Positions 23,146 to 39,200 of a DNA stretch of 64,000 nucleotides are shown piece after piece (the first letter of the stretch is position 1; each line of letters starts with the position of its first letter). This stretch comes from Paracoccaceae bacterium. Lineage in GTDB: Bacteria; Pseudomonadota; Alphaproteobacteria; Rhodobacterales; Rhodobacteraceae. The stretch spans positions 2,144,808 to 2,208,807 of the forward strand of contig OZ220486.1 of the NCBI GenBank assembly GCA_965116115.1, read 5' to 3'. The notes below the pieces were generated by a model. The model did not search any database. It was not told the DNA's origin and saw nothing but the letters and a program-made list of their open reading frames with translations. Position numbers and translations under genes: made by a program.

Positions 23146-26139
23146 ATGACGGCTCCGAAGATTTTTGATTCCTGCCACCCGCGCCCCGACGTTCTGGATG
23201 GCACTTTGTCAGAGGCCGATTTCGCGGCCGACTTGGCGCAAGTGGTTTCCGGTAAGGGACCGGCCGAATATACGAATCCGGCACGGTTTTTTGCCAACAC
23301 CTACCCGACAAGAGGGTTAAAAGACCTTTTGAAGAATGTCTGCGCCCGGTTGAACGGCGCCGGCAGTGAAGCCGCGTCAATTTTCCGTCTCGACACATCC
23401 TATGGCGGCGGAAAATCGCACGGTCTGATTGCGCTCTGCCATGCCGCTCGCCGTGGCTCCGAGTTGCAGGAACTTTCCCGTTTCGTCGATCCCGAAATGA
23501 TTCCCCGGGACCGTGTGCGCATTGCCGCCTTTGACGGCGAGAACGCAGACCCGGCTAACGGCCGTCGTATGGGCGCAGGTCATCTCGCCTATACGCCATG
23601 GGGTGAGATCGCTTGGTCGCTGGCCGGCGCCGAAGGTTATGAGCGGGTCCGCCTGAGCGATATGAAACGAGTCGCTCCAGGCGCCGAGACGCTGCGCGAG
23701 CTGTTTGGCGGCGAACCGACGCTGATCCTTTTAGATGAACTTTCTGTCTACCTGCGCAAGGCGGCCGCTCTCGGCCAGGCTCGCGAACAGCTGACCGCTT
23801 TCTTGACATCTCTGTTCAGGGCCGTGGAGGGTGAGCCAAACGCAGCTCTCGTCTTCACTCTGGCGATCGGCAAGGACGGGCGGGCAGGTGACGCTTATCG
23901 TGAAGAAAACGAGTTCATCTTCGACATCATGGCGGAGGCAGAGAGCGTGTCGGCGCGTAAGGCGACGTTGTTGAATCCCACCGAAGAAGACGAGACGATT
24001 CAAGTGCTTCGCCGCCGCCTGTTCGAATCCATTAACGACGCGGCCGCAGCCGCCGCGGCAGAGGCTTACCTGGCGCAGTGGAGGGCTCATTCTCAGGCCT
24101 TGCCGGAAAAAGTCGCACGGGCTGAGGCCGGCGCGGAGTTCCGTTCGAGTTACCCCCTTCATCCCGAGGTGCTTGACGTCCTGAAGGCCAAGACGGCGAC
24201 GCTCGGCAATTTCCAGCGAGTTCGGGGAATGCTGAGGCTGCTGGCCCGCACCGTGGCCCATTTATGGAAGCAGCGGCCTGCTGACGCGACAGCCATCCAC
24301 CTGCACCACATTGATCCCGGCCATGAACCCATACGCCAAGAGATTGTGACGCGCCTCGGCCAGTCTCAGTTCGCGCCTGCGATTTCCAATGACGTGTCCG
24401 GAGGGTCAGCGGACAAAGCAGCGCTCGCTGAGGAAATTGATAACGGGCATTACGGGCGAATGCCGCCATACGCTTCCTATGTGGCCCGCACCATCTTCAT
24501 GCACACGCTGGCATTCAACGATCCTCTGAAAGGGGTATCAGCGGAACGGCTGCGTTACTCGGTTCTTTGCCCGGCAACGGACATCAGCTTCATTGATGAT
24601 GCGCAGAAGAAATTCATCGCGGATTCCGCCTATCTGGACGACCGTCCCGGGGCGACGATGCGTTTTGCGGCCGAGGCCAACCTTCAAAAAATGATACGCA
24701 ATACGCAAGATGGCATCGACGCCGGGGAGACGCGGGCGGAACTGAACGACCGGATCCGCACCATATTCAACGGCAGAACGCTGTGTGCGGTGCCATTTCC
24801 CGGCGGTCCGTTCGATGTAGCTGACGATGTCGCGGACGGGCGTCCGAAGCTGGTCATTCTCGGTTACGAGGCTGTGACAGTGGGCGAATCGGAAGATTCC
24901 GTTCCGGAGCTGATCCGGCGCATCTACAAGAGGAAGGGATCGGACAGCTCTGCGCTGCGCATGCTTCGCAACAATCTTGTCTTTGTGGCCGCCGATGAGG
25001 CGCGCAAGGAAAACATGCGCCGCAATGCCCGCCGCCGGCTGGCGCTGCGCGAGTTGAAGAAGCCGGAACGCTTGGTCGAATTAGCGCAGCACCAACAGGA
25101 AAAAGTCCGTGAGGAGGAAGCGCGCTCAGAGCAGGAACTCGCGCTTGCCGTTCAGCAATGCTACCGGCATGTATACTATCCGTCGCGTAACAGCAGCTCC
25201 GGCGGCGTAGATCTGGCGCATACAGCCATCGATATGCCCTCGGCCTCCGAAAGACCGGGCACGGGGCAGCAACAGGTCGTGCAGGCTTTACGGCGTCTGA
25301 ACAAGCTTCGCCTTTCAGAGGATAAACCGGATTCTCCGACTTATGTGCGCGACCGGACGCCTCTCAAAAAGGGACCAATGACGACGCTGTCGTTGCGCGA
25401 TGAATTCCGTCGTGACCCTGCGTTGACAATACTTGTAGGCGACGGCATCTTTGTTCGCGGCGTGAAGCAAGGCATCGAGCAGGGCGAGTACGTGTACCGC
25501 CGTGGAGAACTGCTTTGCGGGCAAGGCGATCCGGAGGTCGAGATCGAAATCGATGAGCAGTCAACGGTCCTGACAACAGCCTATGCGAAAAATAAGGGAA
25601 TTTGGCCACGACCACCGTTACCGCCACGTCCCAAGAAAAAACCTGAAGACAAAAATGGGGGTAACGACAAACCCCCGGGCCCAGACGGCCCTGAACCGGA
25701 TTCGTTTTATGCCGAGGGGCCTCTCCCAGAAGCGCTCGTGTGTATTTGGGACCAAGCCCGTGCGAAAAAAACCGAGTCCATCGCCGTAATGACCGTTCGC
25801 ATGTTCGAGGCCGGCGACGCCTTCCGGCTTCTCGGTGCTGTCAATGCAGTCCAAGGAGCGAAGCCTATTGTCACGCTGGAAGGCGGTTACGAGACCCAAG
25901 ACAACGGTACTCTCGAATTGGATTTCCGGGGGCCGGTTTCCGACGCGCAGCCGCTCCGGGAATTCTTGGAGCCGCAGTTACGGGCCGCCGTTTCGCAGAA
26001 TCTTAAAGCGGGATTTGAGTTGACCTACGAGAACGGTTTGCCGATGAAAGGCGACGCTGCGGAAAAACTGACCGAACGGCTCACCCGGTTCGCGCGCGGT
26101 GCGGCATTTGTTACGGCCATAGCGAAGGCGAGGACGTAA
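23146..26139 (+). CDS. DUF499-family ATPase (BrxC/PglY-like)
   Basis: About 997 aa from the ATG at 23146. N-terminus is KIFDSCHPRPDVLDGTLSEADFAADLAQV. P-loop is RLDTSYGGGKSHGLIAL and Walker B is PTLILLDELSVYL. The overall layout is typical of DUF499 proteins. Confidence 0.8.
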   Translation: MTAPKIFDSCHPRPDVLDGTLSEADFAADLAQVVSGKGPAEYTNPARFFANTYPTRGLKDLLKNVCARLNGAGSEAASIFRLDTSYGGGKSHGLIALCHAARRGSELQELSRFVDPEMIPRDRVRIAAFDGENADPANGRRMGAGHLAYTPWGEIAWSLAGAEGYERVRLSDMKRVAPGAETLRELFGGEPTLILLDELSVYLRKAAALGQAREQLTAFLTSLFRAVEGEPNAALVFTLAIGKDGRAGDAYREENEFIFDIMAEAESVSARKATLLNPTEEDETIQVLRRRLFESINDAAAAAAAEAYLAQWRAHSQALPEKVARAEAGAEFRSSYPLHPEVLDVLKAKTATLGNFQRVRGMLRLLARTVAHLWKQRPADATAIHLHHIDPGHEPIRQEIVTRLGQSQFAPAISNDVSGGSADKAALAEEIDNGHYGRMPPYASYVARTIFMHTLAFNDPLKGVSAERLRYSVLCPATDISFIDDAQKKFIADSAYLDDRPGATMRFAAEANLQKMIRNTQDGIDAGETRAELNDRIRTIFNGRTLCAVPFPGGPFDVADDVADGRPKLVILGYEAVTVGESEDSVPELIRRIYKRKGSDSSALRMLRNNLVFVAADEARKENMRRNARRRLALRELKKPERLVELAQHQQEKVREEEARSEQELALAVQQCYRHVYYPSRNSSSGGVDLAHTAIDMPSASERPGTGQQQVVQALRRLNKLRLSEDKPDSPTYVRDRTPLKKGPMTTLSLRDEFRRDPALTILVGDGIFVRGVKQGIEQGEYVYRRGELLCGQGDPEVEIEIDEQSTVLTTAYAKNKGIWPRPPLPPRPKKKPEDKNGGNDKPPGPDGPEPDSFYAEGPLPEALVCIWDQARAKKTESIAVMTVRMFEAGDAFRLLGAVNAVQGAKPIVTLEGGYETQDNGTLELDFRGPVSDAQPLREFLEPQLRAAVSQNLKAGFELTYENGLPMKGDAAEKLTERLTRFARGAAFVTAIAKART

Positions 26140-26664
26140 ATGGCGCGGCTGGATCGGGTGTCGGATGCGGAGACGCCCGCGCTTTCACCGCGCTACGAAT
26201 TGCGGGTGCGGCGTCATGGGCCGGCAGACTCCTCCTATGAGGTTTGGCAGCTGCCGTCAGCTGCCTCGCCGCATTTGTCCTGTGCGCAGCGTGTCGCCGG
26301 GCTGCGGGGCCGCAATCTCGACTTTGTCGAGCACCGGGTGCTGAGAAGGCTGTCACAGGCCGGCATCCGACTGGGACAGCATAAGGATGCGACGAAGCGC
26401 GGTTATATGCTTAGCGAAGACGCGGCACTCATACTGGGCCTGCTTTTCCGAGCTCTGGCGCCGATGCGCAGCCGTGCCAACATGCGGGCCGTAACGGAAG
26501 GTATCGAGGCGATGGGCCGCGAAGAGGCGGCTTACTGGCTGGGCATGGCCATGCACCGCAGGAACCCCCGGAGGGTTTTAACGGCTCTCAGGTGCCTTTT
26601 GACGGAGCCGAAGCGGCGGCACCAATGCCGCAGAACAAGTTCAGAGAAAAAACCTAATGGATAA
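26140..26664 (+). CDS. Small conserved-partner-like protein (possibly the DUF3780-type protein that accompanies DUF499/DUF1156 genes)
   Basis: 174 aa. The start abuts the DUF499 stop (TAAATG) and the stop overlaps the next start (TAATG). The family assignment is from memory of the gene neighbourhood only. Confidence 0.55.
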   Translation: MARLDRVSDAETPALSPRYELRVRRHGPADSSYEVWQLPSAASPHLSCAQRVAGLRGRNLDFVEHRVLRRLSQAGIRLGQHKDATKRGYMLSEDAALILGLLFRALAPMRSRANMRAVTEGIEAMGREEAAYWLGMAMHRRNPRRVLTALRCLLTEPKRRHQCRRTSSEKKPNG

Positions 26665-27184
26665 AGAGACGCTTGGTCTATCCAATAATGACGAAGAACC
26701 GGAAGGTCTGGATCAAGACAGCGTGTCGTGGGGAGACTATCCGCTTGATGACCTCTTGATCAGATACGAGAGCCGGACAGTCCATGACGTTATCCGACGC
26801 ATCGACCAGTCCAACTATGTCATGGATCCGGACTTCCAGCGAGACTTTATCTGGCCGGAAGATAAACAAAGCAAACTCATTGAGTCAGTGATCATGCGTA
26901 TACCTTTGCCTGTTTTCTATATGGCAGAGGACGATCGAGGACGCATGGTTGTGGTGGACGGTTTGCAGCGCCTTTCGACTTTCCATCGCTTTGTCAAGGA
27001 TGAGTTGAGATTAGAACTTCCCGCTAGGGAGGCGATCAATGGCAGGAGATTCAAGGATCTGCCGCCCAAGATCCAGAATCGTGTCGAGGACTGTAATCTC
27101 ATTTTTTATGTCATCGATTCGAAGGTGCCGGAACGTGCCCGGCTGGATATATTCGAAAGGGTCAACGGCGGCGTTCCTTTGACC
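26657..27184 (+). pseudogene. DUF262 (ParB-like/GmrSD N-terminal) domain protein, 3'-truncated by IS256 copy A
   Basis: DPDFQRDFIWPEDKQSKLIESVIMRIPLPVFY...VVVDGLQRLSTF (a DGQQR-type motif). The native reading frame ends at the IS terminus at 27185. No C-terminal nuclease domain is left. Confidence 0.75.
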
Positions 27185-28619
27185 GGGAATGTCCCGCTTG
27201 ATGTTGAAACCCGCAGGAGCGATGCTGCCTGTCGGCTATCTACGCGGCGTCCTTGAGCCGGTCAAGCCGATCCTTTCGACGATGTTCGATGAGAGCCTGC
27301 TTGAGAACGGGCAGCTGCCTGTAAGCCTTGATGCGGCGGAAACCCTTCTCGGCCGCTGTCATGCCGGCGGCGGGCTGTCGCAGAGCCATCCCGGCGTTCC
27401 TCCAGCGCTTCACGTTGCGGCAGACCTGCCGGACCGTGCTGTTCATCGATTCGATGATGTTCGTGCTCGCCAGCGACCGCCGCAGCTCTGACGGCAGGCC
27501 GAGCCGGGAGACGGTCAGGACCTCGTCCAAGCCCTCAAGTATCGACCGGGAGACGTCCGGAGCCTCCTGTTCGAACCGCTGAGCCAGGCTGCGCATCAGC
27601 CGCTCGGCCTTGTCGGCGTCATCAAGTTCCCAGGCTTGCCTGAGCGTCCGCCGCACGCCGGCGTGATGTTCCGCGGCGAGACGGTCGATGATGTTGCGGC
27701 CCTTGTGAACCTGACAGCGCTGAATAGGGATGTCCGCGCCGAAAGTGCGCCGGATCGCCTTGCTGAGCGCCCTGGCTCCGTCGACGATGAACAGATAACA
27801 GCCCTTCGGATCAAGCCCGCGCCGGATCAGATCATCAAGCAGAGCCTGCACGGTCGCGGCGTTCTCCGTCGCGCCTTCGATGACGACTGGGGGGCGCTTA
27901 CGCCCCGACGCGTCAATGCCGACGGCCCCGATCATCAGCAGGCGGTCGCTCATATGCAGCCCGTCGATCTGAACCGCGACGAGATCAAGCTCCGACAGAT
28001 CGGAAGTCATCCATTCATCAAACTTCGCCTGCGTCAACGCCTTGAACCGGCGGGACACGGCCGATTTCGACAGCCCGCAGCCCGCCCCGCAGGGAACCCC
28101 GGCCTCCGGAATCCTCACCGCCCGGCGGAACTTGCGGGTCGCTGCGCTCGCGGTCATCAAGTTCACCGCCCATCGGTCGAGATAACCGTCCGCGGAGATT
28201 TCTTACTGGCTCGGCAGAGACATCTCCTTGCCCGCAGCCTTGCAGCGGAGACGCGGACGGTCGATGCCGACCTTGCCGCCGTGAAACCCGACCTGGGAAC
28301 GCGTATGTCCCCAGCGGTGCCCCGGCTTGTCGGGAGAATGACTGTGACGTTTCCCGGCCAGCCGTTCGGCGTCCTCGTCCATCATCTGCCGCAGATACGC
28401 GATGCCCGTCGTCAGGCAGAATTTCTCGAAACTCTCGGTCACGTCTTCGTACGCCTCTTCGACGAGCGCGTTGATGTTCGGAGCGCTGGCGGAGGCGCCG
28501 GGGAATGTGCTAACGGTTTTCATGGTGTTGCTTCCTTTTCTTCAAAAAATCCCCGAGCTGATTCTCGGGGGAGAGGCAACACCGCCCATATCAAATTCAA
28601 CATCAAGTGGGACATCCCC
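27185..28619 (-). mobile_element. IS256-family element copy A (1435 bp), transposase interrupted by an in-frame TAA, no target-site duplication
   Basis: Termini are gggaatgtcccgcttgatgttgaa and (reverse complement) ggggatgtcccacttgatgttgaa. ORFs 28203..28523 and 27240..28166 together equal the intact 427-aa transposase of copy C, except for SQ* versus SWE at codons 105-107. Flanks are cctttgacc and gggagatta. Confidence 0.9.
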
Positions 28620-28704
28620 GGGAGATTAGCCGTGTTAGCGTTGTGCTTGTGGGGAATTTAATCCAGAGATTTTTACCCCCGCGTGGTTTGCATTAAACGG
28701 TCTT

Positions 28705-29215
28705 TTGCCGAAGAGTGCCGCCGAGACAGCCGAAATTAGGATTGCGCATCATCAGGCATCCAGTTTCTGCACTGAATGGCTCCAGCTTGATGCCGCCCCC
28801 GACCGTTTCCAGGCCGCGACTCAATCGGCCCCGAATATCCGGGTCCGTGACTTTGTGTTACGTGCCTTCAAGGAGCAACTCGTCCACACTCCCATCAAGG
28901 CGCTCGGAATCAATCGTGATGCGCATTTTCGTGCACCAAACCAGAGTGCCCGGAATCATGTTGGCAGAGTGTTGGCACCGGTGGAACCATGACTTCCTTG
29001 CACTGAGGAACTCGGCTTGGGACTGGACAGCGAAAACGGCGGGATGCGGTCCTTGACTATGGTGGATACTCAGCCCGAAGGCCGGCCACCGGGAGGACAG
29101 ATCAGTGTTACGGTGGAACCGTCTCAACGAATCGGCAACGGAATCACAGGGATATATGTGGGTACCAACGATCACTACGCAGTTGACTTAACTGATGCCA
29201 AAGGTAGGGCTATCG
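28705..29215 (+). pseudogene. Orphan gene, frameshifted and then split by ISAs1 (last codons at 30448..30482)
   Basis: ORFs 28705..28992 and 29017..29271 are in different frames. Reading continues across the ISAs1 insertion (..HYAVDLTDAKG / SAHNCWGF*). No family was recognised. Confidence 0.35.
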
Positions 29216-30447
29216 CTTTTGAATTTTTCTGCTTTTCAGTCAGCTTTTTTGTTCCATCAATGCCTCAATAATACAAACAGAGGCAAGCAGATGACTGATT
29301 TATCTCATATTTTCAATGGCATCACCGATCCCCGGCGCAGCAACGCCATCCGGCATGACCTTCACGAAATACTCATGATCGCTTTTCTGACTGTCATGTC
29401 GGGAGGAGAAACATGCACCGATACAGTCGAATTCGCTGAAATCAAGAAGAAATTCCTGCTTGAGTTCATGGATCTGAAGCACGGCACGCCGAGTCACGAC
29501 GCCTTTTCCGACCTGTTCAACAGTCTGAATCCGGTCGAGCTCGGCGTCGTTCTCTCGCGCCTTGCCGAGCTGGGCGGAGGGTCTGGCAGCAGCAGACGGG
29601 GACGGCGTCATCGCCGTCGACGGCAAGACTCTGCGCCGGTCATTCGCCGACGCTTCGAAGCGGCATCCTCTGCATCTCGTTCACGCTTTCGCCTCTGACA
29701 CGCGGCCAGCTCTCGCGCAGACCGCGGTCGACGGGAAGTCGAACGAGATCACCGCGATCCCTGCGCTTCTGAAGTTCCTCGACATCCGGGGGCGGACGGC
29801 AGCGGCTGACGCGATGCATGCGCAGCGGACGATATCGGAGGCCGTGAAGGACGGCGGGGGCGGGTATATTCTCGCCTTGAAGGGCAATCAGGGCAATCTG
29901 CACAAGGATGTGAAACGGTATATGGAGAACCCCGGTAATATTGAAAACATTCAGTTTTCCGAGACGCATAAGGAGAAGGGGCACAGCCGGATCGAAACCC
30001 GGCGGGCCGCGGTCTGCCATGATGTCGGCTGGCTGGAAAAGCTCCTACAGTCGGGTCTCGCCGCTGTCGGATCCGTCTCTTCGACCCGGGAAATCAAGGG
30101 AAAGCGCAGTGCCGAAACCCGGTATTTCATTATGAGTGAGAAGCGGGGTCCGGAGCGTTTTCTCAAGGGCGTGCGGGAATGCCTGGTCGGTGAAAACAGT
30201 CTGCACTGGGTACTCGATGTCACGATGAATGAAGATCATCTGCGAAACCGGACCGGACCCGGGCCGGAAAACCTGGCCGTGATGCGGCGGCTGTCTCTCA
30301 ACCTGGCGCGGGTCACGGAGGACAAGCAGGCTGAGTCAATGCGCGGCAAACTCAAGAAAGCCGGATGGGATCACCGCTATGCGCTGAAGCTCATCAGCTC
30401 CGCTGGAATGCTGCCGGAAAACTGGGAATCTCAAAAGCGATAGCCCT
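29216..30447 (+). mobile_element. Complete ISAs1-family element with 10-bp target duplication; transposase has one frameshift
   Basis: Terminal repeats are agggctatcg...cgatagccct. atgccaaagg is present on both flanks (29205-14 and 30448-57). The transposase starts at the ATG at 29291 (MTDLSHIFNGITDPRRSNAIRHDLHEIL) and continues in ORF 29562..30443 (VIAVDGKTLRRSF...ILALKGNQGNL). Confidence 0.85.
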
Positions 30448-30571
30448 ATGCCAAAGGGAGCGCACAATTGCTGGGGTTTCTAGAAAGCAATTTTAATGAT
30501 TCAATGCAGCGCAGCGATGGCATAATTGATCACATCATGTCATTAGCAGTGGATAAAGGAGGATAAGTTTT

Positions 30572-31195
30572 ATGAAACAATCAGTCAACTCCACTGCGAA
30601 CCGAAGGTTCAACCGGGTGCCGGGTGGAAATGGAAGTTCCCCTAGGAAGTTTCAGCATGGACAATCGGCATTCCGGGTGCCAGAAGTGAAGGCCGCAGTG
30701 GATCGGGCGTTGGCATCCGCCAAACATGCGAAACATATGACGACGCATGATTTGCGGGGCGGAAACTGTTTGTCTCCTGAGTCGCTTCTTGATCATACTC
30801 ATAGCCGTGATCGGGCCGTTCCAGCCGTTGATTTTCCTCCATTGGCAAAATCCGAGCCCCGCATGAGCACGCTCTATGCGTTGCAGGAATGGGAAGGATA
30901 TGTTGTTCAAATCGAAGCTGACGAATTCGTAGCACGCCTGGTCAATTTGACAGCAGGACATTCCCATGAGAGCCAAGAAGCGACTATCCCTCTAGTTGAA
31001 ATTTCCGAGTATGATATCTCCTGTATGACTGTCGGTAGTATTTTCCGCTGGGTGATCGGTTACGAACGTTCTCCCGAAGGAACGCAGAAGCGGGTATCGC
31101 AAATTGTTTTCCGGGATTTGCCCAGAATGACCGAAAGTGACTTTTCGGAAGGCAAAGCGTGGGCGCGAAAGATCGTACAAGCCATCAGCCCATGA
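30572..31195 (+). CDS. Orphan 207-aa protein (basic, probably disordered N-terminal half; compact C-terminal half)
   Basis: A strong SD (aaggagg) lies 8 nt upstream of the ATG at 30572. The stop overlaps the next start (ATGA). No motif was recognised. GC is about 50-55% by eye. Confidence 0.6.
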   Translation: MKQSVNSTANRRFNRVPGGNGSSPRKFQHGQSAFRVPEVKAAVDRALASAKHAKHMTTHDLRGGNCLSPESLLDHTHSRDRAVPAVDFPPLAKSEPRMSTLYALQEWEGYVVQIEADEFVARLVNLTAGHSHESQEATIPLVEISEYDISCMTVGSIFRWVIGYERSPEGTQKRVSQIVFRDLPRMTESDFSEGKAWARKIVQAISP

Positions 31196-32277
31196 AAAAT
31201 GCAAGAAAACCGCCGGAGGATCAGGAGTTCGAACTGACGCTTCTTGGTCCCGGTTACGGCGAGAGTATCGTAATGCACGTCGGTGGCGGTGAATGGGTTG
31301 TCGTCGATTCTTTTTTGGACTCTGCTGGAAGGCCCGCAGCGGTGCGATATCTGGAGGAAATCAGCGTCAATCCAGCGGAGTCCGTTGTTCTGATCGTGGC
31401 GACGCATTGGCATGATGACCACATACGCGGGATCGCGCGTCTAGTTACACTGTGTTCAGCAGCTGGATTTTGTTGCGCTGGCGCACTATTTTGCGAGGAG
31501 TTTCTGACACTGGCAGGGGCACTGGAACGCCGACATTTTTCTGCGTCCGGTTCCGGGATGCGCGAGATGCACGATGTGTTTTCTGTGTTTGAGGTGACAG
31601 GGAAGAGGCCAGCGCACGCGATGGCAAACCGTGTCGTGCTTCGAACCGACGCATGCACCGTTTCGTCTCTGTCTTCCAGCGACGCGGTTTTCCAGAGCTT
31701 CTTAAAATCCGTCGAACGCCTAATTCCCGGACGAGGTGCGAACAAGACGCGGATTCCAACCCTTTTTCCCAATCAGGCTGCGGTTGCGCTGCGGGTAAAT
31801 GCCCAACCTGTCTCCTTGTTACTCGGCGCCGACTTGGAGAGAAGCGGCTGGGTAGCAATTTTTGAGGACAAAACACGTCCAGCTGGCCGGGCATCAGTTT
31901 TCAAGGTTCCTCATCATGGCTCGAAGGATGCCGACGAACCGGGAATATGGAAATTTCTGTTGGAACCGGACTCATATGTTGTTCTGACTTCTTGGCGTCG
32001 AGGCAGCCGTGTATTGCCAACGCCACAGGGCACCAGGCGTATTTCAGCCGCTACGGCAAACGCCTATGTGTCGGCTGCGAATACGCAGCCGGTCCGGCGG
32101 GGCCTCAGGCATGCGGAAAGATCAGTGGCGAAGACTTTGCGGGAATCAGGAGTCCAACTCCGTTCGCCTGAATCTCAAGATAGTTCAGTTCGGCTGCGGC
32201 GCCGCTTCGTTTCTGCACGCCCGTGGTCGCTCGAACTACGCGGGGATGCGCGCCACTTAAAGAACTTTGCAGCGTAG
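31192..32277 (+). CDS. Metallo-beta-lactamase-fold hydrolase, ComEC/Rec2-like subtype
   Basis: H-x-H-x-D-H is present as ATHWHDDHIRG. The late motif is FKVPHHGSKDA, as in ComEC-type MBL domains. The ATG at 31192 is coupled to the upstream ORF. The gene ends 7 nt before the methyltransferase ATG. Confidence 0.75.
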   Translation: MKNARKPPEDQEFELTLLGPGYGESIVMHVGGGEWVVVDSFLDSAGRPAAVRYLEEISVNPAESVVLIVATHWHDDHIRGIARLVTLCSAAGFCCAGALFCEEFLTLAGALERRHFSASGSGMREMHDVFSVFEVTGKRPAHAMANRVVLRTDACTVSSLSSSDAVFQSFLKSVERLIPGRGANKTRIPTLFPNQAAVALRVNAQPVSLLLGADLERSGWVAIFEDKTRPAGRASVFKVPHHGSKDADEPGIWKFLLEPDSYVVLTSWRRGSRVLPTPQGTRRISAATANAYVSAANTQPVRRGLRHAERSVAKTLRESGVQLRSPESQDSSVRLRRRFVSARPWSLELRGDARHLKNFAA

Positions 32278-32284
32278 CGCGCCC

Positions 32285-35209
32285 ATGCCGGAAGACCCCC
32301 GTCTGATCGAACGCTGGCTGCCGATTGCGGCACTTGGCGAAGAGAGCACCCGCGAGCGGCGGTCCATGACAGCTTTGCCGCCGACGTACTATCTCCATGT
32401 CTGGTGGGCGCGGCGGCCGTTGGTGGCGTCGCGCGCCGCCGTTCTGGCCTCGCTGCTGCCCGCGGACGCCGACCGAGAGATGTTCATGCATGCGCTGGGG
32501 ATCCATGGGGATCCGGTGGCGGCAAAACGGCGAATCTCGATTGCCACTCGAAAAGGTGAGCGCCTGGGGGCTGCCGCGTACGGATACTCACGTGCCTTTG
32601 GCTATACGCCTAATTTCGAGGACAAGAAATGGGTGTTTTCTTTATTACTTGGAGAAGCAACAGTTCTTGACCCGACAGCAGGTGGCGGCAGCATACCCTT
32701 TGAGGCAGTTCGCCTAGGCTTGAAGGCCATGGCCAACGACCTTAACCCCGTGGCGTCATTAATTGAGCGTGCCACCATCGACTGGCCTAGCAAACATGGG
32801 AGCGAAATCAAGATAGTCTTTGAAGAGCTGGGTATCAAACTTACGGCCACTGTACGAGAGCGGCTGGCCGGAATTTTTCCGTTGGAACCTGAAGAGAATA
32901 CTCGATCTGACGGCTATCTCTGGGCCCGCACGGTCACTTGTCCGTATTGCGCCGGCCTTGTGCCGCTTTCGCCGAACTGGCGTCTGGCACCGGGCGGGAC
33001 AGGGGTGCGATTGCAGCCGGACCTGTCTGCGGGGCCGGGTTCCGAAGGCCGGGAATGTTCGTTTGAGATCGTTGAGAGCGAACGGGATCAGTCGCCGGGC
33101 ACGGTTTTGAAAGGCGCCGGTTCCTGCCCGTATCCGGACTGCGGGCGCGTCATCGACGGCAAGGAGATCAAGCGTCAGGCTCAGGCCGGCCGGATGGGCG
33201 AGCAGCTTTACGCCGTGGTGTACAAGCGGCGCGTGCCGGGCCGGATCCTCAAGTCGGGCAAGCGGGGCAAGGACAAATGGGACCGCGGTTACCGGGCCCC
33301 GCGGCCGGAGGATGACAACAGCGCGGACATCGCCGTCCGGCTGGCCGGCAAACTTCCCGAGTGGGAAGCGTTCGACATGGCGCCGGGGGAGAGGTTTCCG
33401 GAAGTCAGTAATGACGATCGCCCGATACAGTATGGAATGCCGCTCTGGCGCGATCTGTTTTCGCCGCGTCAGCTTCTGTGCCACGGAACCGGCGTCGAGG
33501 TGTTCCGGGAGATGCTGGAGGCCGACCGCCGGGCCGGCAGGCTGACCGATGTCCGCCGGGCGGCCTACGGGTATCTGGCTTTGATGCTTGATAAGCTTTT
33601 GAACTACAATTCCCGCATGACTCGTTGGATATCGCAGCGAGGAGTCATCGCCGGGACATTTGATCGCCATGATTTTGCGTTGAAATGGTCCTACGCGGAA
33701 ATGGCCCCGCTCGTCGCCGGGGTCGGCTACGACTGGGCTGTCGGCCAAACCGCGAAATGCATCAAAGAACTGACGGCGCTTGTCCGTCCGGAAACCGGTA
33801 ACGAGGGCGGCCTGTTTAAAGCCGAGTCTGCCCCGCCCCCGGTCACCGTCTCCTGCAAATCGGGAGACAGCCTTGATCACATAGAGGACGGCAGCATTGA
33901 CGCAGTGGTCATGGATCCGCCCTATTACGACAACGTGATGTATGCTGAGCTTTCGGACTTCTTCTATGTCTGGCTGAAGCGCACCGCCGGGCATGTCTTT
34001 CCCGAACTGTTCCGGCGCGTTTTGACCGACAAGGAGAATGAGGCGGTCGCGAACCCGGCGCGGTTCCGGGGCGGGAAGAACGCGAAGGAAATGGCCGGCC
34101 GCGAATACCGGGAACGCATGGCGTCGATTTTCGCGGAATGCCGCAGGGTATTGAAGCCTGACGGCATCATGACGCTGATGTTCACGCATAAGGCGAAGGG
34201 GGCGTGGGACGCGCTCACCGCGGGCCTGATGGAAGCGGGGTTCGCCGTCACCGCGTCTTGGCCGGTCAACACGGAAGCTGAAGGCAGCCTTCATATCCGG
34301 AATAAGGCGGCAGCCAACAGCACGGTTTTTCTGGTCTGCCGCCCGCGGGCCGCCGCCGGCCCGGAACAGGGTCGCTATTGGGAGGATGTGGAGCCGCGGG
34401 TGGCGCAGGCGGTCCGTGAACGGATCGGGTCGTTTCAGGAAGCCGGGATCGCCGGGGTCGATCTTTATCTGGCCTGTTTCGGCCCGGCGCTGGAAGAATT
34501 TTCCCGCAGTTGGCCGCTCAAACGCGGAACGCCGCGGCAAATGTCCAAAGAACGGCGAAGGAGCAGCAGCGGAAATCGTCCCGAGGATGATCCGGATCCA
34601 TATGCGGTGACGCCGGAGGATGCGCTTGATGCCGCGCGCCGGGAGGTGACGCGCTGGCGGATGGAAAAGCTGACGCGCCTGAAGGTTGACGCCGGTCTTG
34701 ATGCTCCGACCAACTTCTTCGTGCTCGCTTGGGACGCTTTCCGGGCGCCGGTGTTCTCGTACGACGAGGCGTTGCGGCTGGCGCGCGCCGCGGGTGTTGA
34801 TCTTGACCGCGACATCATGGACCGGCTGGCCGGAAAGAAGGGCAGCGACATCGTCATGTGGGACAGCGCCCGGCGCGCGGCGGCGGCGAAGCTCGGCCCC
34901 GCCGACGGTTCACGCGGCATGATCGACGCGCTCCATCACGCCGCCCATACGGCGCGGCGGCGCTCACTGGCCGCTGCCCGGGAGTCGCTGGCCGACGCGA
35001 ATCTGGATCAGGACGCGGGTTTCATCGCGGCGCTGACGGCGGCCCTCGAGGTGCTGCCGGTTTCCAGGTCAATCACGGGCATCGAGCTTCAAGGCGACGC
35101 CGCCGCGTCGGGCGATGACTTCGAGGCGCTCAACAATCTGAGACTGCTGGCCTACAGCGACCGGGTCGCCGAGCCGGAGCAGCTCTCGTTCTGGCGGGAT
35201 GACGAGTAG
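32285..35209 (+). CDS. DUF1156-family DNA methyltransferase (COG1743-like, DPPY motif)
   Basis: N-terminal IERWLPIAALGEES...YYLHVWWARRPLVASRA is the DUF1156 signature. The catalytic motif IV is VVMDPPYYDNVMYAELSDFFYVWLKR. About 974 aa from the ATG at 32285. Confidence 0.85.
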   Translation: MPEDPRLIERWLPIAALGEESTRERRSMTALPPTYYLHVWWARRPLVASRAAVLASLLPADADREMFMHALGIHGDPVAAKRRISIATRKGERLGAAAYGYSRAFGYTPNFEDKKWVFSLLLGEATVLDPTAGGGSIPFEAVRLGLKAMANDLNPVASLIERATIDWPSKHGSEIKIVFEELGIKLTATVRERLAGIFPLEPEENTRSDGYLWARTVTCPYCAGLVPLSPNWRLAPGGTGVRLQPDLSAGPGSEGRECSFEIVESERDQSPGTVLKGAGSCPYPDCGRVIDGKEIKRQAQAGRMGEQLYAVVYKRRVPGRILKSGKRGKDKWDRGYRAPRPEDDNSADIAVRLAGKLPEWEAFDMAPGERFPEVSNDDRPIQYGMPLWRDLFSPRQLLCHGTGVEVFREMLEADRRAGRLTDVRRAAYGYLALMLDKLLNYNSRMTRWISQRGVIAGTFDRHDFALKWSYAEMAPLVAGVGYDWAVGQTAKCIKELTALVRPETGNEGGLFKAESAPPPVTVSCKSGDSLDHIEDGSIDAVVMDPPYYDNVMYAELSDFFYVWLKRTAGHVFPELFRRVLTDKENEAVANPARFRGGKNAKEMAGREYRERMASIFAECRRVLKPDGIMTLMFTHKAKGAWDALTAGLMEAGFAVTASWPVNTEAEGSLHIRNKAAANSTVFLVCRPRAAAGPEQGRYWEDVEPRVAQAVRERIGSFQEAGIAGVDLYLACFGPALEEFSRSWPLKRGTPRQMSKERRRSSSGNRPEDDPDPYAVTPEDALDAARREVTRWRMEKLTRLKVDAGLDAPTNFFVLAWDAFRAPVFSYDEALRLARAAGVDLDRDIMDRLAGKKGSDIVMWDSARRAAAAKLGPADGSRGMIDALHHAAHTARRRSLAAARESLADANLDQDAGFIAALTAALEVLPVSRSITGIELQGDAAASGDDFEALNNLRLLAYSDRVAEPEQLSFWRDDE

Positions 35210-35215
35210 CGCCGC

Positions 35216-38200
35216 ATGTTCCGTGACCGTCCATGGCGCCTCAAATACACGGTCGATGACGGTGATCTCGTTAAGCTTTTCCACATCCCTGCGCTTGAGG
35301 ACGCGGTCCGCTACGACCGGCTGACCGGCTATTTCAACGCTCAGGCGCTCGCGCTCGCGGCGCGCGGCATTGAGGGGCTGGTGCGCAATGATGGAAAGAT
35401 GCGGCTCGTGGCAGGATGCACGCTGGAGCCTGACGAGATCACAGCGATTGAACGAGGCGAGGCCCTCCGCGCCGTGGTGGAGCGGCGCCTTGCAGGCGAA
35501 CCGCTCACTCCGCCCGATCCGGCATCGGCCGGTGCGCTGGAACTTCTGGCGTGGATGGTCGCGCGCGGGTTTCTTGACGTGAAAGTCGCCGTGCCCCGAA
35601 ATGCCTCAGGCGAGCCGGATCCGGAGAGCGGAATTTTCCACGAAAAGTCCGGGATCGTCGAGGACCGGGCCGGCAACCGGCTTGCCTGGACCGGCAGCCT
35701 TAACGAGACCGGCGCTGGCTGGCGGAACAACTGGGAGAGCTTCAGCGTCTATACCAGCTGGGGAGCGGAGCCCGGACGGGTCGATGCGGAGGAGGCGAAC
35801 TTCGCCCGCCTCTGGGCCGGGAGGACGGAGCGCATGTTCGTTCTGGATGTGCCGGAGGCGGTGCGCCGCGACCTGATGCGTTTTATGCCTGAGACCGGCC
35901 TGCCGGCGCGTCTGGAGCGGCAGTCGACGGTTGCGGGCCGAAAACATTCCGCGCCGAAGCCGGAACACCGGCCGGACAACGGCGCGGGAATGCCGGCGTC
36001 GCTGCGCGGACGGGTATGGGCGTTTATCAGGGAAGCGCCGTCGCAGCCGGGCGGGGAGGGGATCGGCGAGGCCACCGCGCCGGTCGTGCCTTGGCCGCAT
36101 CAGGCAAGGGCGTTCGAGCGTTTGTACGGTAACTGGCCGCCCCGGCTCTTGATCGCGGACGAAGTCGGGCTGGGCAAGACCGTTCAGGCCGGACTGCTGT
36201 TACGCCAGGCTTGGCTCGCCCGCCGCGCCGAGCGGATTCTGATTCTCGCTCCGAAGGCCGTGCTCGGCCAGTGGCAGATCGAACTCCGGGAGAAGTTCAA
36301 TCTCAACTGGCCTGTCTACGACGGCGGAAAACTGATATGGTATCCTTCGCCGGCGCTGAAGGGGCGGCATGAACGCGTCGTCGGGCGCGGGGAGTGGCAT
36401 CGCGAGCCGGCTGTGATCGTGTCCAGTCAACTGATGCGCCGGCGCGATCGGGCGAAGGAACTCTTGGAAACGGCGGAGGCGTGGGACTTGGCAGTGCTTG
36501 ACGAGGCGCATCATGCCCGCCGCAAGGCCCCCGGAAGTCAGCAGGAAGGGGGACCGAACACGCTTCTCCGACTTATGCGGGGTCTTAAGGACCGCTCGAA
36601 AAGCCTGCTTCTTCTGACTGCGACGCCAATGCAGGTGCATCCGGTAGAGGTTTGGGACTTGCTTGATCTGCTCGGGTTGCCGCCCGAATGGAACGAACAG
36701 GCGTTTCTCACGTTCTTCGAAGATATCGGGAAGCGGAATCCTTCGAATGATGCCATGGAACGGATGGCGGCGCTGTTCCGCTCTGCCGAGCGTGAATTCA
36801 GCGAAATTGGAACGGAGGATGCGCAGCGTCTGACCCGCCTCTCGCGGCTTAAGGCGAACAAAGTGCTCCGCGCCCTGCGCGATTCCGCCAGCATTCCGCG
36901 CCGCCAACTGGAAACCGGCGAGCGTCAGGCGGCGGTGGCGATCATGCGGTCCGCCGCCCCGGTCCGCCGGCTGATCTCGCGAAACACCCGCGAGCTGCTG
37001 CGGCGTTACTTCCGTGAAGGGATGATTGAGACGCCGATCGCGGAACGCCGGGTTGAAGACCGCTTTCTGGAGATGACGGCCGGCGAACGTGCCGTTTACG
37101 AAGCGGTCGAGGATTACATCGCAGGCGCGTACAGACGGGCGAGCGGCCGGGAACGCACGGCGGTCGGTTTCGTCATGACGATCTACCGCCGTCGGCTGGC
37201 CAGCAGCTTCACGGCGTTGCGCGAAACCCTGCGCAAACGCCGCGATGCCGTCACCGGCGCCGTGCGCATGAACGCCTTCGGTCTCGCGGAGGATCTGCCG
37301 GACGATGAAGCGGCCGACGAAATGATTGACGCCGACAAGGCGGCTGACCTTGAACGCCGATCCCTCGACCGCGAGCATGAGGCGGAAATCGACCGGCTGC
37401 TCGGTGCGGCCGGGAACCTGCCGCCGGACAGCAAACTCGGCGGTCTCAAGGAGGTTCTGCGCGAACTGCGCCGTGCAGGACATGACCGGATGATGGTGTT
37501 TACCCAATACACCGATACCATGGATTTCCTTCGCGACGCGCTCGCGAAGGATGCTGAGTGGGCGCTGCTGTGTTTTTCCGGCCGGGGAGGAGAGGCGCTT
37601 GGGACAGACGGCACATGGCGCGGAATATGCCGGGACGATGCGAAACAGCGTTTCCGGGACGGGCAGGCGGATGTCCTGTTGTGCACCGATGCGGCGGCTG
37701 AGGGCTTGAATTTTCAGTTCTGCGGCGCTGTGGTCAATTACGACATGCCGTGGAACCCCATGCGGGTCGAACAGCGCATCGGGCGCATAGACCGGCTGGG
37801 TCAGAAGCACGAAACCATCCGTATTGTCAACCTGCACTATGAGGGGACAGTCGAGACAGACATCTACCGCGCGCTTCGCGACCGTATCGGCCTGTTTGAA
37901 AAAGTGGTGGGACGTCTGCAGCCGATCCTGGCCCGTTTGCCCGGCGCGATATCGCAGAGCGTGCTCTCGGGGCAGGGCCGGGAAGAGCGCGGGCGCGCCG
38001 GGCTTATCGCCGATATCGAACAAAAAGCGAATGAAGCCCGAGACAGCGCAGGATTTGATATCGATGGCGTGACCGAGGATGACTTGACTATGCCGACGCG
38101 CCCGGAGCCGACCGTAACGATGGAAGATCTGGATCGGATCATCGTATCAGACAGCTTGACAGCGCCCGGGGTCGATGTTCAGGCGATGAGACATCGCGAA

Positions 38201-38398
38201 TACGGACTGCTGGCGCCGGGCATGGACGCACAGTTACGGGTGACTACAGACCGGAAATATTTCGAGGAACACGCGGAGAGCATGGAATTTTGGTCGCCCG
38301 GCAATCCATTGTTCAGCAAATCGGAGCCTGCGGACAAAGCGGAACTGGACCCCGCGCACAAGACGCTGAAGGACATCCTTGATGATGCCGGGCGTTGA
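35216..38398 (+). CDS. PLD-nuclease-domain / SNF2-family helicase fusion
   Basis: An N-terminal HKD-like motif reads GIFHEKSGIVED...SLNET. SNF2 motifs are LIADEVGLGKTVQAG (I), LDEAHHARR (II), LLLTATPMQ (III) and PWNPMRVEQRIGRIDRLGQ (VI). The start is 7 nt after the methyltransferase stop. Confidence 0.85.
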   Translation: MFRDRPWRLKYTVDDGDLVKLFHIPALEDAVRYDRLTGYFNAQALALAARGIEGLVRNDGKMRLVAGCTLEPDEITAIERGEALRAVVERRLAGEPLTPPDPASAGALELLAWMVARGFLDVKVAVPRNASGEPDPESGIFHEKSGIVEDRAGNRLAWTGSLNETGAGWRNNWESFSVYTSWGAEPGRVDAEEANFARLWAGRTERMFVLDVPEAVRRDLMRFMPETGLPARLERQSTVAGRKHSAPKPEHRPDNGAGMPASLRGRVWAFIREAPSQPGGEGIGEATAPVVPWPHQARAFERLYGNWPPRLLIADEVGLGKTVQAGLLLRQAWLARRAERILILAPKAVLGQWQIELREKFNLNWPVYDGGKLIWYPSPALKGRHERVVGRGEWHREPAVIVSSQLMRRRDRAKELLETAEAWDLAVLDEAHHARRKAPGSQQEGGPNTLLRLMRGLKDRSKSLLLLTATPMQVHPVEVWDLLDLLGLPPEWNEQAFLTFFEDIGKRNPSNDAMERMAALFRSAEREFSEIGTEDAQRLTRLSRLKANKVLRALRDSASIPRRQLETGERQAAVAIMRSAAPVRRLISRNTRELLRRYFREGMIETPIAERRVEDRFLEMTAGERAVYEAVEDYIAGAYRRASGRERTAVGFVMTIYRRRLASSFTALRETLRKRRDAVTGAVRMNAFGLAEDLPDDEAADEMIDADKAADLERRSLDREHEAEIDRLLGAAGNLPPDSKLGGLKEVLRELRRAGHDRMMVFTQYTDTMDFLRDALAKDAEWALLCFSGRGGEALGTDGTWRGICRDDAKQRFRDGQADVLLCTDAAAEGLNFQFCGAVVNYDMPWNPMRVEQRIGRIDRLGQKHETIRIVNLHYEGTVETDIYRALRDRIGLFEKVVGRLQPILARLPGAISQSVLSGQGREERGRAGLIADIEQKANEARDSAGFDIDGVTEDDLTMPTRPEPTVTMEDLDRIIVSDSLTAPGVDVQAMRHREYGLLAPGMDAQLRVTTDRKYFEEHAESMEFWSPGNPLFSKSEPADKAELDPAHKTLKDILDDAGR

Positions 38399-38919: not shown

Positions 38920-39200
38920 AACGCGCATCCGCGCTGAACTGCTGCGGCAATGACGGAAGACTCGCCTGCGCTGAGCCATCCAGTGGCAGACAAGAAGGCG
39001 AAAAAGCGGCGTTATTCAGCGGCTTCAACGAAAACGATACAAGTTCCCCGGAATCAAATGCAAGGCGAAGCGGCGTTTCTGGTTGAAATATCGATTCCGA
39101 TGCTTCGCCGGCGACATGGTCGGCGATCAGAAATGCGCGGGAATGGTCCTCGATCAGATTGATCTTGTCCATGCGCAGGAAATTGATCATGCCCCGTTGA
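38920..39200 (+). mobile_element. Fragment of the 5' part of the second-type IS256 element (related to 19170..19420)
   Basis: About 70-75% nucleotide similarity by eye to 19170..19420 (gaagactcgcctgcgc...ccccggaatcaaatgcaa...cttcgccggcgacatgg). No transposase body follows. Confidence 0.45.

Follow-up and report, generated by a model that had tools for sequence, protein, structure and literature searches.

[quoted passage not shown] The helicases of BR type 1 (Hma) carry an N-terminal TUDOR and a C-terminal PD-(D/E)XK (NOV_C/DUF3883) nuclease, and the DUF1156 N-terminus sets BR methyltransferases apart from those of type 3 BREX (PMC12839542). Hma operons contain an internal hotspot for the insertion of defence genes, with Septu embedded (PMC11232893), and Menshen is known beside BREX and RM systems (PMC12065111).

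Here we analysed a gene cluster in a 64,000-nucleotide stretch of a Paracoccaceae genome (the window). The cluster is an IS-damaged, MANTIS-like phage-defence operon, a four-gene relative of BREX without PglZ. The family to which it belongs is widespread and comprises four genes, for a DUF499 ATPase, DUF7680, a DUF1156 N6-adenine methyltransferase and an HKD(PLD)-SNF2 helicase; gene order and domain architecture match BR type 2 (Gao_RL, renamed MANTIS in 2026); thus, the initial annotation, which called the family poorly characterised, is outdated on this point. Since the family is widespread and was already described in 2026, the only parts of the cluster that look new are its small subunit, which is unusual, and one of the lodged modules. 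We consider it highly probable that this is a chromosomal, methylation-based restriction system of four genes with BR type 2 (MANTIS/Gao_RL) architecture, in which DUF7680 replaces DUF3780.

The four core genes

The core genes, designated A to D, are as follows:

23146..26139, plus strand: A, DUF499 AAA+ ATPase (MtsA/BrxC-like), full length; Pfam DUF499 125 bits, PADLOC HmaC 334 bits, NF042962 222 bits
26140..26664, plus strand: B, DUF7680 small protein of 174 aa; Pfam DUF7680 152 bits across the entire profile
32267/32285..35209, plus strand: C, DUF1156 N6-adenine DNA methyltransferase (MtsC/PglXI-like), full length; Pfam DUF1156 58 bits, PADLOC HmaB 250 bits, NF042963 218 bits
35216..38398, plus strand: D, HKD (PLD) nuclease-Swi2/Snf2 helicase (MtsD-like), full length; SNF2-rel_dom and Helicase_C, with an N-terminal PLD

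The positions given earlier for the named genes and for both IS copies are all correct, and profile searches (Pfam, PADLOC, NCBIfam) back all the domain assignments of the cluster proteins. The tight spacing is confirmed as well, with 7 nt between the MBL and methyltransferase genes and 6 nt between the methyltransferase and helicase genes. None of the four core genes is truncated, and the catalytic motifs are preserved in each; these motifs, like the domain content of the four proteins, were observed directly. The ATPase likely starts at ATG 23146, within a longer ORF that begins at TTG 23125; numbered from this TTG, Walker A (YGGGKS) lies near residue 95 and Walker B (LILLDE) at residue 200. 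It is 75% identical over 996 residues to its orthologs in two related loci, L001 and L002. The methyltransferase, 77-79% identical to its orthologs, has the motifs DPTAGGGS (135), CPYC (225) and DPPY (550), invariant in 25 homologs. The helicase has motifs I (GLGKT, 318), II (DEAH, 429) and VI (QRIGRIDR, 853), and it is matched by PADLOC PLD_Helicase (224 bits), BrxHI/HII (235 bits) and DrmD (228 bits). Its PLD assignment falls short in Pfam, where PLDc_2 scores 21 bits, under the cut-off, and stands through NCBIfam phospholipD_antiphage (NF042964, 353 bits) and through the residues H142/K144/D150/G160-S161-x-N163-E164, which are invariant in 71 orthologs and whose HKD residues align with the canonical A. 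baumannii protein.

DUF7680 occupies the slot of MtsB/DUF3780 in MANTIS. Among 80 species-representative loci surveyed, DUF7680 sits directly next to DUF499 in 67/67 scorable loci, with a median gap of 30 nt. DUF7680 and DUF3780 have no detectable sequence similarity (profile-profile hhalign probability 0.07% and 0.4%). Both have the predicted secondary structure b-b-b-a-b-a-a-a-a with near-identical element boundaries, and aligned without gaps they agree at 73%, compared with 57.5% or less in shifted registers. The AF2 model of DUF7680 has a pLDDT of 77; the comparison of the folds is weak because DUF3780 is modelled with low confidence (pLDDT 55).

The top PADLOC matches, HmaC for the ATPase and HmaB for the methyltransferase, together with the defence-gene hotspot that Hma operons also have, would fit an Hma (BR type 1) operon of helicase HmaA, methylase HmaB and ATPase HmaC with an incidental extra small gene. 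However, the helicase here has an N-terminal HKD and no NOV_C match in the Pfam profile search, not the TUDOR and PD-(D/E)XK of type 1, and HmaA covers merely its helicase core (182 bits). Type 1 also lacks a conserved small subunit, while every scorable locus here has DUF7680 next to DUF499. We thus regard an Hma identity as very unlikely.

Orthologous loci and the absence of PglZ

Two IS-free orthologous loci, 73-79% identical to the window proteins, have the orders DUF499-DUF7680-NsnA-NsnB-NsnC-DUF1156-SNF2 (L001) and DUF499-DUF7680-238aa-203aa-MBL-DUF1156-SNF2 (L002), and a plasmid of Aminobacter carries the minimal four-gene form. The four core genes keep a fixed order in about 70 loci. 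Of the 80 loci surveyed, 64 have DUF7680 upstream of the methyltransferase and in the same orientation. The gap between these two genes is at most 100 nt in 16 loci and exceeds 1 kb in 42, and that from methyltransferase to helicase is at most 100 nt in 42/70 loci. The junction between the A-B and C-D pairs is a hotspot that accepts other defence cassettes. Among the orthologs these include Menshen, Septu, Schlafen, PIN and STAND-TPR, and they are variable, being carried by some orthologs and absent from others.

The initial annotation found no PglZ, and indeed no window ORF of at least 400 aa contains a PglZ domain. It left two readings: a PglZ-independent DUF499/DUF1156/helicase family, or what is left of a type 3 BREX (brxC-pglXI-brxHII-pglZ-brxA) after IS activity 3' of the helicase removed pglZ and brxA. 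The layout of ATPase, methyltransferase and SNF2 helicase does parallel type 3 BREX, PADLOC PglXI (63 bits) and BrxHI/HII match, and the DNA 3' of the helicase holds IS fragments. However, the IS-free orthologs terminate at the helicase. The neighbourhoods of 45 loci were checked downstream, where the 83 ORFs comprise transposases and unrelated genes only; the 25 families listed for them, which take in every family matched by at least two ORFs, do not include PglZ, so that PglZ is not recurrent 3' of the helicase. Furthermore, the ATPase is a DUF499 protein rather than one of BrxC/DUF6079 type, the N-terminus of the methyltransferase is the BR-type DUF1156 (PMC12839542), and a conserved HKD nuclease is part of the helicase itself. 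The reading as a decayed BREX is therefore extremely improbable, and the PglZ-independent family is the correct alternative.

Lodged cassettes and IS elements

The A-B and C-D pairs are now 5.6 kb apart, with IS and pseudogene DNA between them:

26657..27182, plus strand: 5' fragment of Menshen NsnA (ParB/DUF262), about 176 of 377 codons; PADLOC NsnA 190 bits
27183..28621, minus strand: IS256-family element with 51-nt imperfect inverted repeats; Transposase_mut 94 bits
28622..29204, plus strand: remnant of the 238-aa gene, first of a trio; tblastn with the L002 238-aa query, residues 15-202, 69% identity
29205..30448, plus strand: ISAs1-family element inside the 238-aa gene, with 31-nt inverted repeats; DDE_Tnp_1 52 bits
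30449..30566, plus strand: 3' end of the 238-aa gene; tblastn residues 198-234
30572..31195, plus strand: 207-aa protein, second of the trio, apparently intact; 63% identity to the L002 203-aa protein
31159/31192..32277, plus strand: MBL-fold protein, third of the trio; Lactamase_B 27 bits, HxHxDH motif invariant

The DUF262 and MBL genes, previously taken as extra modules of the system, lie outside it: each is part of a different cassette lodged between DUF7680 and the methyltransferase, present or absent among orthologs, and neither is a constant member. The DUF262 family assignment holds (Pfam GmrSD_N/DUF262, 76 bits), but the gene is only the first half of an NsnA, covering positions 38-191 of the 385 in the PADLOC NsnA profile and aligning with residues 2-185 of the L001 NsnA before IS256 interrupts it. 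It is NsnA-like, a ParB/DUF262 protein without an HNH domain, and not of the BrxU/GmrSD kind as had been suggested. The NsnA C-terminus, NsnB and NsnC are absent throughout the window (tblastn). Thus, since the first half of NsnA alone survives, this copy of Menshen is dead. Reduced to half of NsnA through an IS256-mediated deletion, it is lodged in the surrounding system without being one of its subunits.

The gene between the IS copies, described as a wrecked orphan, is wrecked but no orphan, as related loci have its ortholog, a 238-aa gene, upstream of the 207-aa gene and the MBL gene. It has been destroyed in three ways: truncation (about 14 N-terminal codons are missing), an in-frame TGA at 28990-28992, and the ISAs1 insertion, whose target duplication ATGCCAAAGG forms a direct repeat at 29195-29204 and 30448-30457. 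The transposases of both elements are split, that of ISAs1 into 29195-29698 and 29562-30443 and that of IS256 into two ORFs at 28203-28523 and 27240-28166. The 207-aa protein has no Pfam, PADLOC or NCBIfam match; its gene accompanies the MBL gene in 68/80 metagenome loci. The MBL protein, with the motif ATHWHDDH invariant in 8 orthologs and a match to PDB 9ic4_A (competence protein; E = 4.8e-5), is probably a nuclease because it is ComEC-like. Nearby defence genes have decayed as well, with IetS split and the two cassettes destroyed.

We propose that the hotspot here would have held a Menshen NsnABC cassette followed by the 238aa-207aa-MBL module; an IS256-associated deletion would have taken most of Menshen plus the start of the 238-aa gene, and the ISAs1 insertion and a nonsense mutation would then have finished the latter, sparing the four core genes. 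The deletion is supported because the cluster IS256 copy, with flanks TTCCTTTGA and GAGATTAGC, has no target-site duplication, unlike two further copies in the window, 97-99% identical, each with an 8-9-bp duplication. The same missing duplication, with several near-identical copies in the genome, might also suggest that two halves of different loci were joined by recombination between IS256 copies and never formed one operon. Against this, both halves are equally identical (73-79%) to the same orthologous loci; another locus (L035) has Menshen and MBL cassettes in tandem between the halves, in the order proposed here; neither a further copy nor a stray half of such a system occurs in the window; and the junction takes fewer steps to explain if it arose by deletion between two IS copies in direct orientation. 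We consider such a chimera very unlikely.

Whatever its ancestry, the operon may be a dead relic, if the IS events silenced the C-D half or unbalanced expression so that defence was lost. The 5.6-kb separation and the decay of the neighbouring defence genes point this way, as does the promoter scan upstream of 30572, where sites are no more frequent than chance and none is convincing. However, no core ORF is shortened or has lost a catalytic motif, and read-through transcription into C-D is possible, because the frame of the ISAs1 transposase, the 207-aa gene and the MBL gene are all co-directional with it. Loss of function is thus a possibility to be taken seriously, though we doubt it.

Proposed mechanism and comparison with known systems

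By analogy with MANTIS, the DUF499 AAA+ ATPase would load the DUF1156 methyltransferase onto short asymmetric sites, and the small partner would stimulate the ATP-dependent hemimethylation of N6-adenine in the host DNA. Where incoming DNA has unmodified sites, the same A-B-C assembly would recognise them and thereby license translocation and cleavage by the dimeric HKD-SNF2 protein.

DISARM resembles the cluster in the DrmD matches of the helicase and in having a PLD nuclease, as in DrmC; DrmA, DrmB and DrmC have no match among the eight cluster proteins scanned. In the cluster the PLD is fused to the helicase, the ATPase is DUF499-type and the methyltransferase is DUF1156-type. The complete Menshen is found in orthologous loci as NsnA-NsnB-NsnC (PADLOC 190, 336 and 387 bits). 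Type 3 BREX (brxF-brxC-pglXI-brxHII-pglZ-brxA) and BR type 3 share with the cluster a tripartite core, namely an AAA+ ATPase, an N6A methyltransferase with an inserted TRD and a Swi2/Snf2 helicase; they have a PglZ effector, BrxA/BrxB or iSTAND partners and a helicase without nuclease, whereas the window has no PglZ, nor do its relatives recurrently downstream, and its helicase has the HKD. Hma also combines a DUF499 ATPase, a DUF1156 methyltransferase and a Snf2 helicase-nuclease, and its profiles outscore the type 2 profiles for the window ATPase and methyltransferase (PADLOC). Its nuclease is a C-terminal PD-(D/E)XK, it has no small subunit and its ATPase is often HEPN-fused; the cluster has an N-terminal HKD nuclease and DUF7680, and no HEPN.

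Canonical MANTIS (Gao_RL/Gao_29; MtsA-MtsB-MtsC-MtsD) differs from the cluster in its small protein, DUF3780 in place of DUF7680, without detectable sequence similarity. The window A, C and D proteins are 23%, 23.5% and 25.6% identical to their canonical counterparts and miss the NCBIfam equivalog cut-offs by a wide margin (ATPase 222 vs 1200, methyltransferase 218 vs 1000, helicase 353 vs 1100). The window helicase is about 155 residues longer, and the window-type operon, unlike canonical MANTIS, is often interrupted by cassettes between B and C. The two have the gene order in common (canonically DUF499-DUF3780-DUF1156-PLD helicase), as well as three of the four protein architectures, namely the DUF499 AAA+ ATPase, the DUF1156 N6A methyltransferase and the N-terminal HKD-Swi2/Snf2 protein; neither has PglZ, and each places a small standalone protein between ATPase and methyltransferase (PMC12839542).

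The four-gene core and its arrangement

All of the genes named for this cluster by the initial annotation were confirmed by the ORF map together with the Pfam, PADLOC and NCBIfam profile libraries. The features of the cluster, in window positions, are as follows.

ORF ending at 26139, DUF499 ATPase, the first gene; Pfam DUF499 125 bits, PADLOC HmaC 334 bits; Walker A and Walker B present
26140-26664, DUF7680 small protein; whole Pfam DUF7680 profile covered, 152 bits
26657-27256, DUF262/GmrSD_N ORF; best model PADLOC NsnA (Menshen), 190 bits, profile positions 38-191 of 385
27183-28621, IS256-family copy; 51-nt imperfect inverted repeats, transposase broken
28622-32277, trio of 238-aa, 207-aa and MBL genes
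29205-30448, ISAs1-family copy; simple insertion with duplication ATGCCAAAGG
30572-31195 (+), 207-aa gene of the trio
31159-32277, MBL-fold protein, third gene of the trio
32267/32285-35209, DUF1156 methyltransferase; DUF1156 58 bits, DPTAGGGS and DPPY both invariant
35216-38398, SNF2 helicase with N-terminal PLD; motifs GLGKT, DEAH and QRIGRIDR

The ortholog alignment of the DUF499 ATPase starts at the ATG at 23146. The four core proteins, namely the ATPase (A), the DUF7680 protein (B), the methyltransferase (C) and the helicase (D), are full length and 73-79% identical to their counterparts in two IS-free orthologous loci, L001 and L002. The PLD domain of the helicase scores 21 bits with Pfam PLDc_2, under the cut-off, and 353 bits with NCBIfam phospholipD_antiphage (NF042964); its HKD residues H142, K144, D150, G160, S161, N163 and E164 (HxK...D...GSxNE) are invariant in 71 helicase orthologs and align with those of the canonical Acinetobacter baumannii anti-phage PLD protein. 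A sequence search of the PDB returned no relatives of the ATPase or the methyltransferase. Promoter and terminator scans gave counts not above chance, and a search upstream of DUF499 found no conserved regulator common to the orthologs.

Homologs of the methyltransferase number more than 6600 at E<=1e-20, and many share 70-79% identity with it. On the IS-free contigs, L001 reads DUF499-DUF7680-NsnA-NsnB-NsnC-DUF1156-SNF2 and L002 reads DUF499-DUF7680-238aa-203aa-MBL-DUF1156-SNF2. We surveyed 80 loci, one genome per species, from Alpha- and Gammaproteobacteria, Acidobacteriota, Cyanobacteria, Desulfovibrio, Spirochaetia, Binatia, Latescibacterota and others. In every one of the 67 loci that could be scored, DUF499 adjoins DUF7680 (median gap 30 nt). 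The DUF7680 gene precedes the methyltransferase gene on the same strand in 64 loci, and in 4 the two are divergent. The distance between these two genes is at most 100 nt in 16 loci and more than 1 kb, up to about 9 kb, in 42, while the methyltransferase and helicase lie within 100 nt of each other in 42/70 loci. The Aminobacter plasmid pMET2 carries the minimal form, a four-gene operon with overlapping genes. In the Vicinamibacterales loci L006, L010, L017 and L036, the DUF499-DUF7680 pair is divergent from the methyltransferase-helicase pair, and a PIN-domain gene stands between methyltransferase and helicase in L006, L010 and the short contig L018; because of these two layouts, the A-B and C-D pairs can be said to behave as separable units.

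Two alternatives had been offered for the cluster: a PglZ-independent family, or a type 3 BREX that had lost PglZ. The first stands and the second is refuted, so that the earlier interpretation was half right. Window ORFs of at least 400 aa contain no PglZ domain, and no PglZ gene follows the helicase in L001 or L002. Among 83 same-strand ORFs of at least 180 aa downstream of the helicase in 45 loci, which matched 112 Pfam families, the commonest were transposases (5 ORFs) and AAA_22 (4 ORFs). PglZ is not among the 25 families listed, which include every family matched by at least two ORFs; thus there is at most one downstream PglZ match, and none that recurs. [quoted passage not shown]

The insertion hotspot and the losses in the window

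Extra DNA of more than 1 kb fills the junction between A-B and C-D in about two thirds of the surveyed loci. Clustering of the intervening ORFs, followed by profile scans of representatives, identified the guests: the Menshen cassette NsnABC in nine loci (NsnB 336 bits, NsnC 387 bits), the 238aa-203aa-MBL trio in 7-8 loci, Septu PtuA-PtuB (397 and 194 bits), an AAA-ATPase_like plus PDDEXK_9 protein, a STAND-TPR protein, an AAA_14/DUF4143 protein (PDC-S01), a Schlafen/HATPase_c_4 protein and a three-gene Hsp70-like set. A second insertion site, at the methyltransferase/helicase junction, houses a PIN protein. The Hsp70-like set, present in L023 and L038, encodes proteins of 391 aa and 353-364 aa and a 636-aa Hsp70-like protein; a PADLOC scan of this cassette gave no match, and it is possible that it is another defence module. 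With Menshen, Septu, Schlafen-type genes and others among its guests, the family is a useful bait for new defence modules.

Since the guests vary among loci, the DUF262 and MBL proteins, which the initial annotation had raised as possible additional members, are lodgers and not subunits. Nor does the DUF262 protein belong with BrxU/GmrSD, which it had been said to recall: its full-length ortholog (377 aa) has GmrSD_N only, the C-terminal DUF1524 HNH domain that those proteins combine with DUF262 is missing, and the best profile is NsnA. The ORF surviving in the window corresponds to about the first 176-185 residues of the 377-aa NsnA. When the window was searched by tblastn with proteins from the IS-free orthologs, the remainder of NsnA, NsnB and NsnC were found nowhere in it; Menshen is thus incomplete here and complete in orthologous loci. 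The same search showed that what had been taken for a wrecked orphan gene is the ortholog of the 238-aa trio gene: 28648-29211 corresponds to residues 15-202 and contains a TGA in frame at 28990, and residues 198-234 lie past the ISAs1 copy. The trio continues with the intact 207-aa ORF as gene 2 and the MBL gene as gene 3, which are 61-63% identical to their L002 counterparts.

The IS256-family element is present in three copies (27183-28621, 50661-52094 and 55935-57371), mutually 97-99% identical, and the transposase of the last is intact (427 aa). Clean target duplications of 8-9 bp border both other copies and are missing only from the one in the defence cluster, which is flanked by TTCCTTTGA and GAGATTAGC. 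An inversion between inverted IS256 copies might have explained the absent duplication but was rejected, as neither the 3' end of NsnA nor NsnB or NsnC lies beside the other copies. The simplest history starts from a double cassette and continues with an IS256-linked loss: the locus would originally have carried Menshen and then the MBL trio, and the stretch from the middle of NsnA to the start of the 238-aa gene would have been lost by recombination of two IS256 insertions or by an IS-adjacent deletion. In L035, NsnA and remnants of NsnB and NsnC are followed by the MBL trio, the same order as proposed for the window. The 238-aa gene also suffered the ISAs1 insertion and a nonsense mutation, before or after the deletion.

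The trio extends well beyond this family. A metagenome search anchored on the MBL gene gave 80 loci (L087-L166), in which the 203/207-aa gene accompanies it in 68/80 and the 238-aa gene in 61/80, with constant order and strand; no more than two or three of these loci have BR core genes beside the trio. It is an autonomous, widespread three-gene module, mostly found outside BR systems. A PADLOC scan of its surroundings matched 81 neighbouring ORFs, with 240 families; the neighbours include mad2 of MADS in five cases, DrmMI of DISARM in three, and type I and type IIG RM genes. The 207-aa protein matches nothing in Pfam, PADLOC or NCBIfam, and the 238-aa protein, scanned through its L002 ortholog, nothing in Pfam or PADLOC. 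The MBL protein has an invariant HxHxDH and resembles the ComEC nuclease domain. The constant composition, the defence-rich surroundings and the ComEC-like MBL protein therefore make the trio a candidate stand-alone defence module, one that is not catalogued. The C-terminal domain of the 203/207-aa protein, about 110 aa, also occurs as a separate small ORF (L008, L011, L012, L031 and L041), where it borders Menshen and other cassettes of the same hotspot without an MBL gene.

The cluster sits in 64 kb of decaying defence island, rich in IS copies, and the window locus is a partly decayed member of this island, ordinary in itself. A Gao_Iet system lies at 14667-18386 (-), with IetA at 17148-18386 (517 bits) and IetS broken in two: one ORF, 15947-17155, covers profile positions 3-397 of 826 and the other, 14667-15734, covers 527-826, so that IetS is probably inactivated. 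The candidate defence ATPase PDC-S01 (AAA_14 plus DUF4143; 8659-9924 (-), 545 bits) overlaps the start of a 1383-aa ORF at 4526-8677 (-), for which Pfam and PADLOC scans gave no match. Remains of IS elements occur to either side of the cluster (38399-41000, 19120-19417 and 2345-2479), including an N-terminal fragment of an IS110 transposase at 39865-40461 and ISAs1-like ends at 19120-19159 and 2345-2479. A 229-bp direct repeat, 85% identical (19190-19417 and 38925-39152), brackets the whole cluster.

DUF7680 as a probable counterpart of MtsB

BR type 2, also called Gao_RL, was renamed MANTIS in a September 2026 preprint (10.64898/2026.09.23.753747), with MtsA to MtsD for A to D, and its hallmark is a standalone DUF3780 gene, MtsB. 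The small gene of the window encodes DUF7680 instead, and a Pfam search at E<=5 found no DUF3780 in its product. Comparison of the two families with hhalign, using close homologs in local and global modes and a wider alignment from 50%-identity representatives, revealed no similarity (probabilities of 0.07% and 0.4%). A local likeness between PEERWWLYSK in DUF3780 and VEETYYWYSK in a Rhodococcus DUF7680 is anecdotal, and the profiles lend it no support.

The predicted secondary structures agree in the order of their elements. The AlphaFold model of DUF7680 (pLDDT 77) has the elements E18-25, E32-38, E50-56, H58-73, E88-91, H93-106, H112-124, H127-139 and H143-155, and that of DUF3780 (pLDDT 55) has E17-22, E30-35, E50-52, H56-76, E87-91, H93-108, H111-123, H126-140 and H149-158 (E, strand; H, helix). 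The element order is identical and the boundaries are nearly so; without gaps, the three-state assignments agree at 73%, compared with 57.5% at most in any shifted register. This order is consistent with DUF3780 as published, a sheet of four strands with five helices behind it (PMC12839542). A Foldseek search with the DUF7680 model gave no match at E<=0.001 in a PDB set without MtsB.

DUF7680 and MtsB thus have the same locus position, size and predicted element order, and no sequence similarity. We therefore treat DUF7680 as the positional and probably the functional counterpart of MtsB. Clustered at 90% identity the family comprises 3001 clusters, and a 50% threshold leaves 525 representatives; it is found from Acidobacteriota to Cyanobacteria and Actinomycetota. 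More distant four-gene loci on plasmids of Leptolyngbya and Rhodococcus carry it as well, with DUF499 at 29-33% identity; in the one distant locus tested, from Rhodococcus, the helicase has an HKD N-terminus. The literature searched does not mention DUF7680, and the text-form supplements of PMC12839542 contain neither the accessions sought nor DUF7680-like sequence strings.

Comparison with Hma, MANTIS and other BR systems

BR type 1, or Hma, has a helicase with PD-(D/E)XK at its C-terminus and an ATPase that is often HEPN-fused; in type 2, 98% of taxa have a standalone DUF3780, and an N-terminal HKD takes the place of TUDOR in the helicase; type 3 combines PglZ and iSTAND with a helicase that lacks a nuclease (PMC12839542). 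The hma operon, too, is an insertion hotspot, and HmaA on its own gives defence against T4 (PMC11232893). The window ATPase and methyltransferase score higher on Hma profiles. The window helicase differs from that of Hma, which has N-terminal TUDOR and C-terminal PD-(D/E)XK (NOV_C/DUF3883), in that its N-terminus is HKD and NOV_C has no match in it.

With MANTIS, the window shares the architecture and order of A, C and D: a DUF499 AAA+ of the ORC/Cdc6 clade as first gene, a DUF1156 N6-adenine methyltransferase, N-terminal HKD with Swi2/Snf2, and no PglZ in window ORFs of at least 400 aa, with restriction by the helicase-nuclease predicted. The canonical A. baumannii plasmid locus is ordered in the same way. 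However, the window proteins are only 23-26% identical to the canonical ones, and fall short of the NCBIfam equivalog cut-offs (NF042962-4; 222 against 1200, 218 against 1000 and 353 against 1100 bits).

In MANTIS, MtsA loads the MtsC methyltransferase at unmodified asymmetric 6-bp sites, and ATP-dependent hemimethylation requires an MtsB dimer; restriction requires all four proteins and favours inverted unmodified sites, and the MtsD dimer resembles SauUSI and has a single PLD active site (10.64898/2026.09.23.753747). This behaviour is known only from the DUF3780-type system of P. aeruginosa (10.64898/2026.09.23.753747). The DUF7680 loci have the corresponding domain content, conserved catalytic residues, a fixed gene order and no recurrent downstream PglZ. 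By analogy, host DNA would undergo hemimethylation by a methyltransferase loaded by the ATPase and stimulated by the small partner, and unmodified DNA would be cut by an HKD-SNF2 dimer. The role of MtsB is unresolved, and its authors expect that 'alternative proteins or domains' may fill it in other BR systems (10.64898/2026.09.23.753747); resembling MtsB without sequence similarity, DUF7680 is therefore a natural candidate for such an alternative and offers a ready-made comparison. If DUF7680 too activates methylation, the traits that it has in common with MtsB would hint at how this step works.

Taken jointly, these observations allow a reading that we offer tentatively, as possible and somewhat short of probable: the DUF7680 loci would be a distinct, widespread BR lineage, in effect a fourth type, with a small protein of no detectable sequence relation to MtsB as methylation co-activator; the A-B/C-D junction would be a dedicated docking site for defence cassettes; and the 238aa-207aa-MBL trio would be a defence module in its own right, not yet catalogued and equipped with a ComEC-like nuclease. 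Compared with the known systems, what is new here is the DUF7680 subunit, which marks a large lineage not described before, together with the MBL trio of the hotspot; the locus is otherwise of a known kind.
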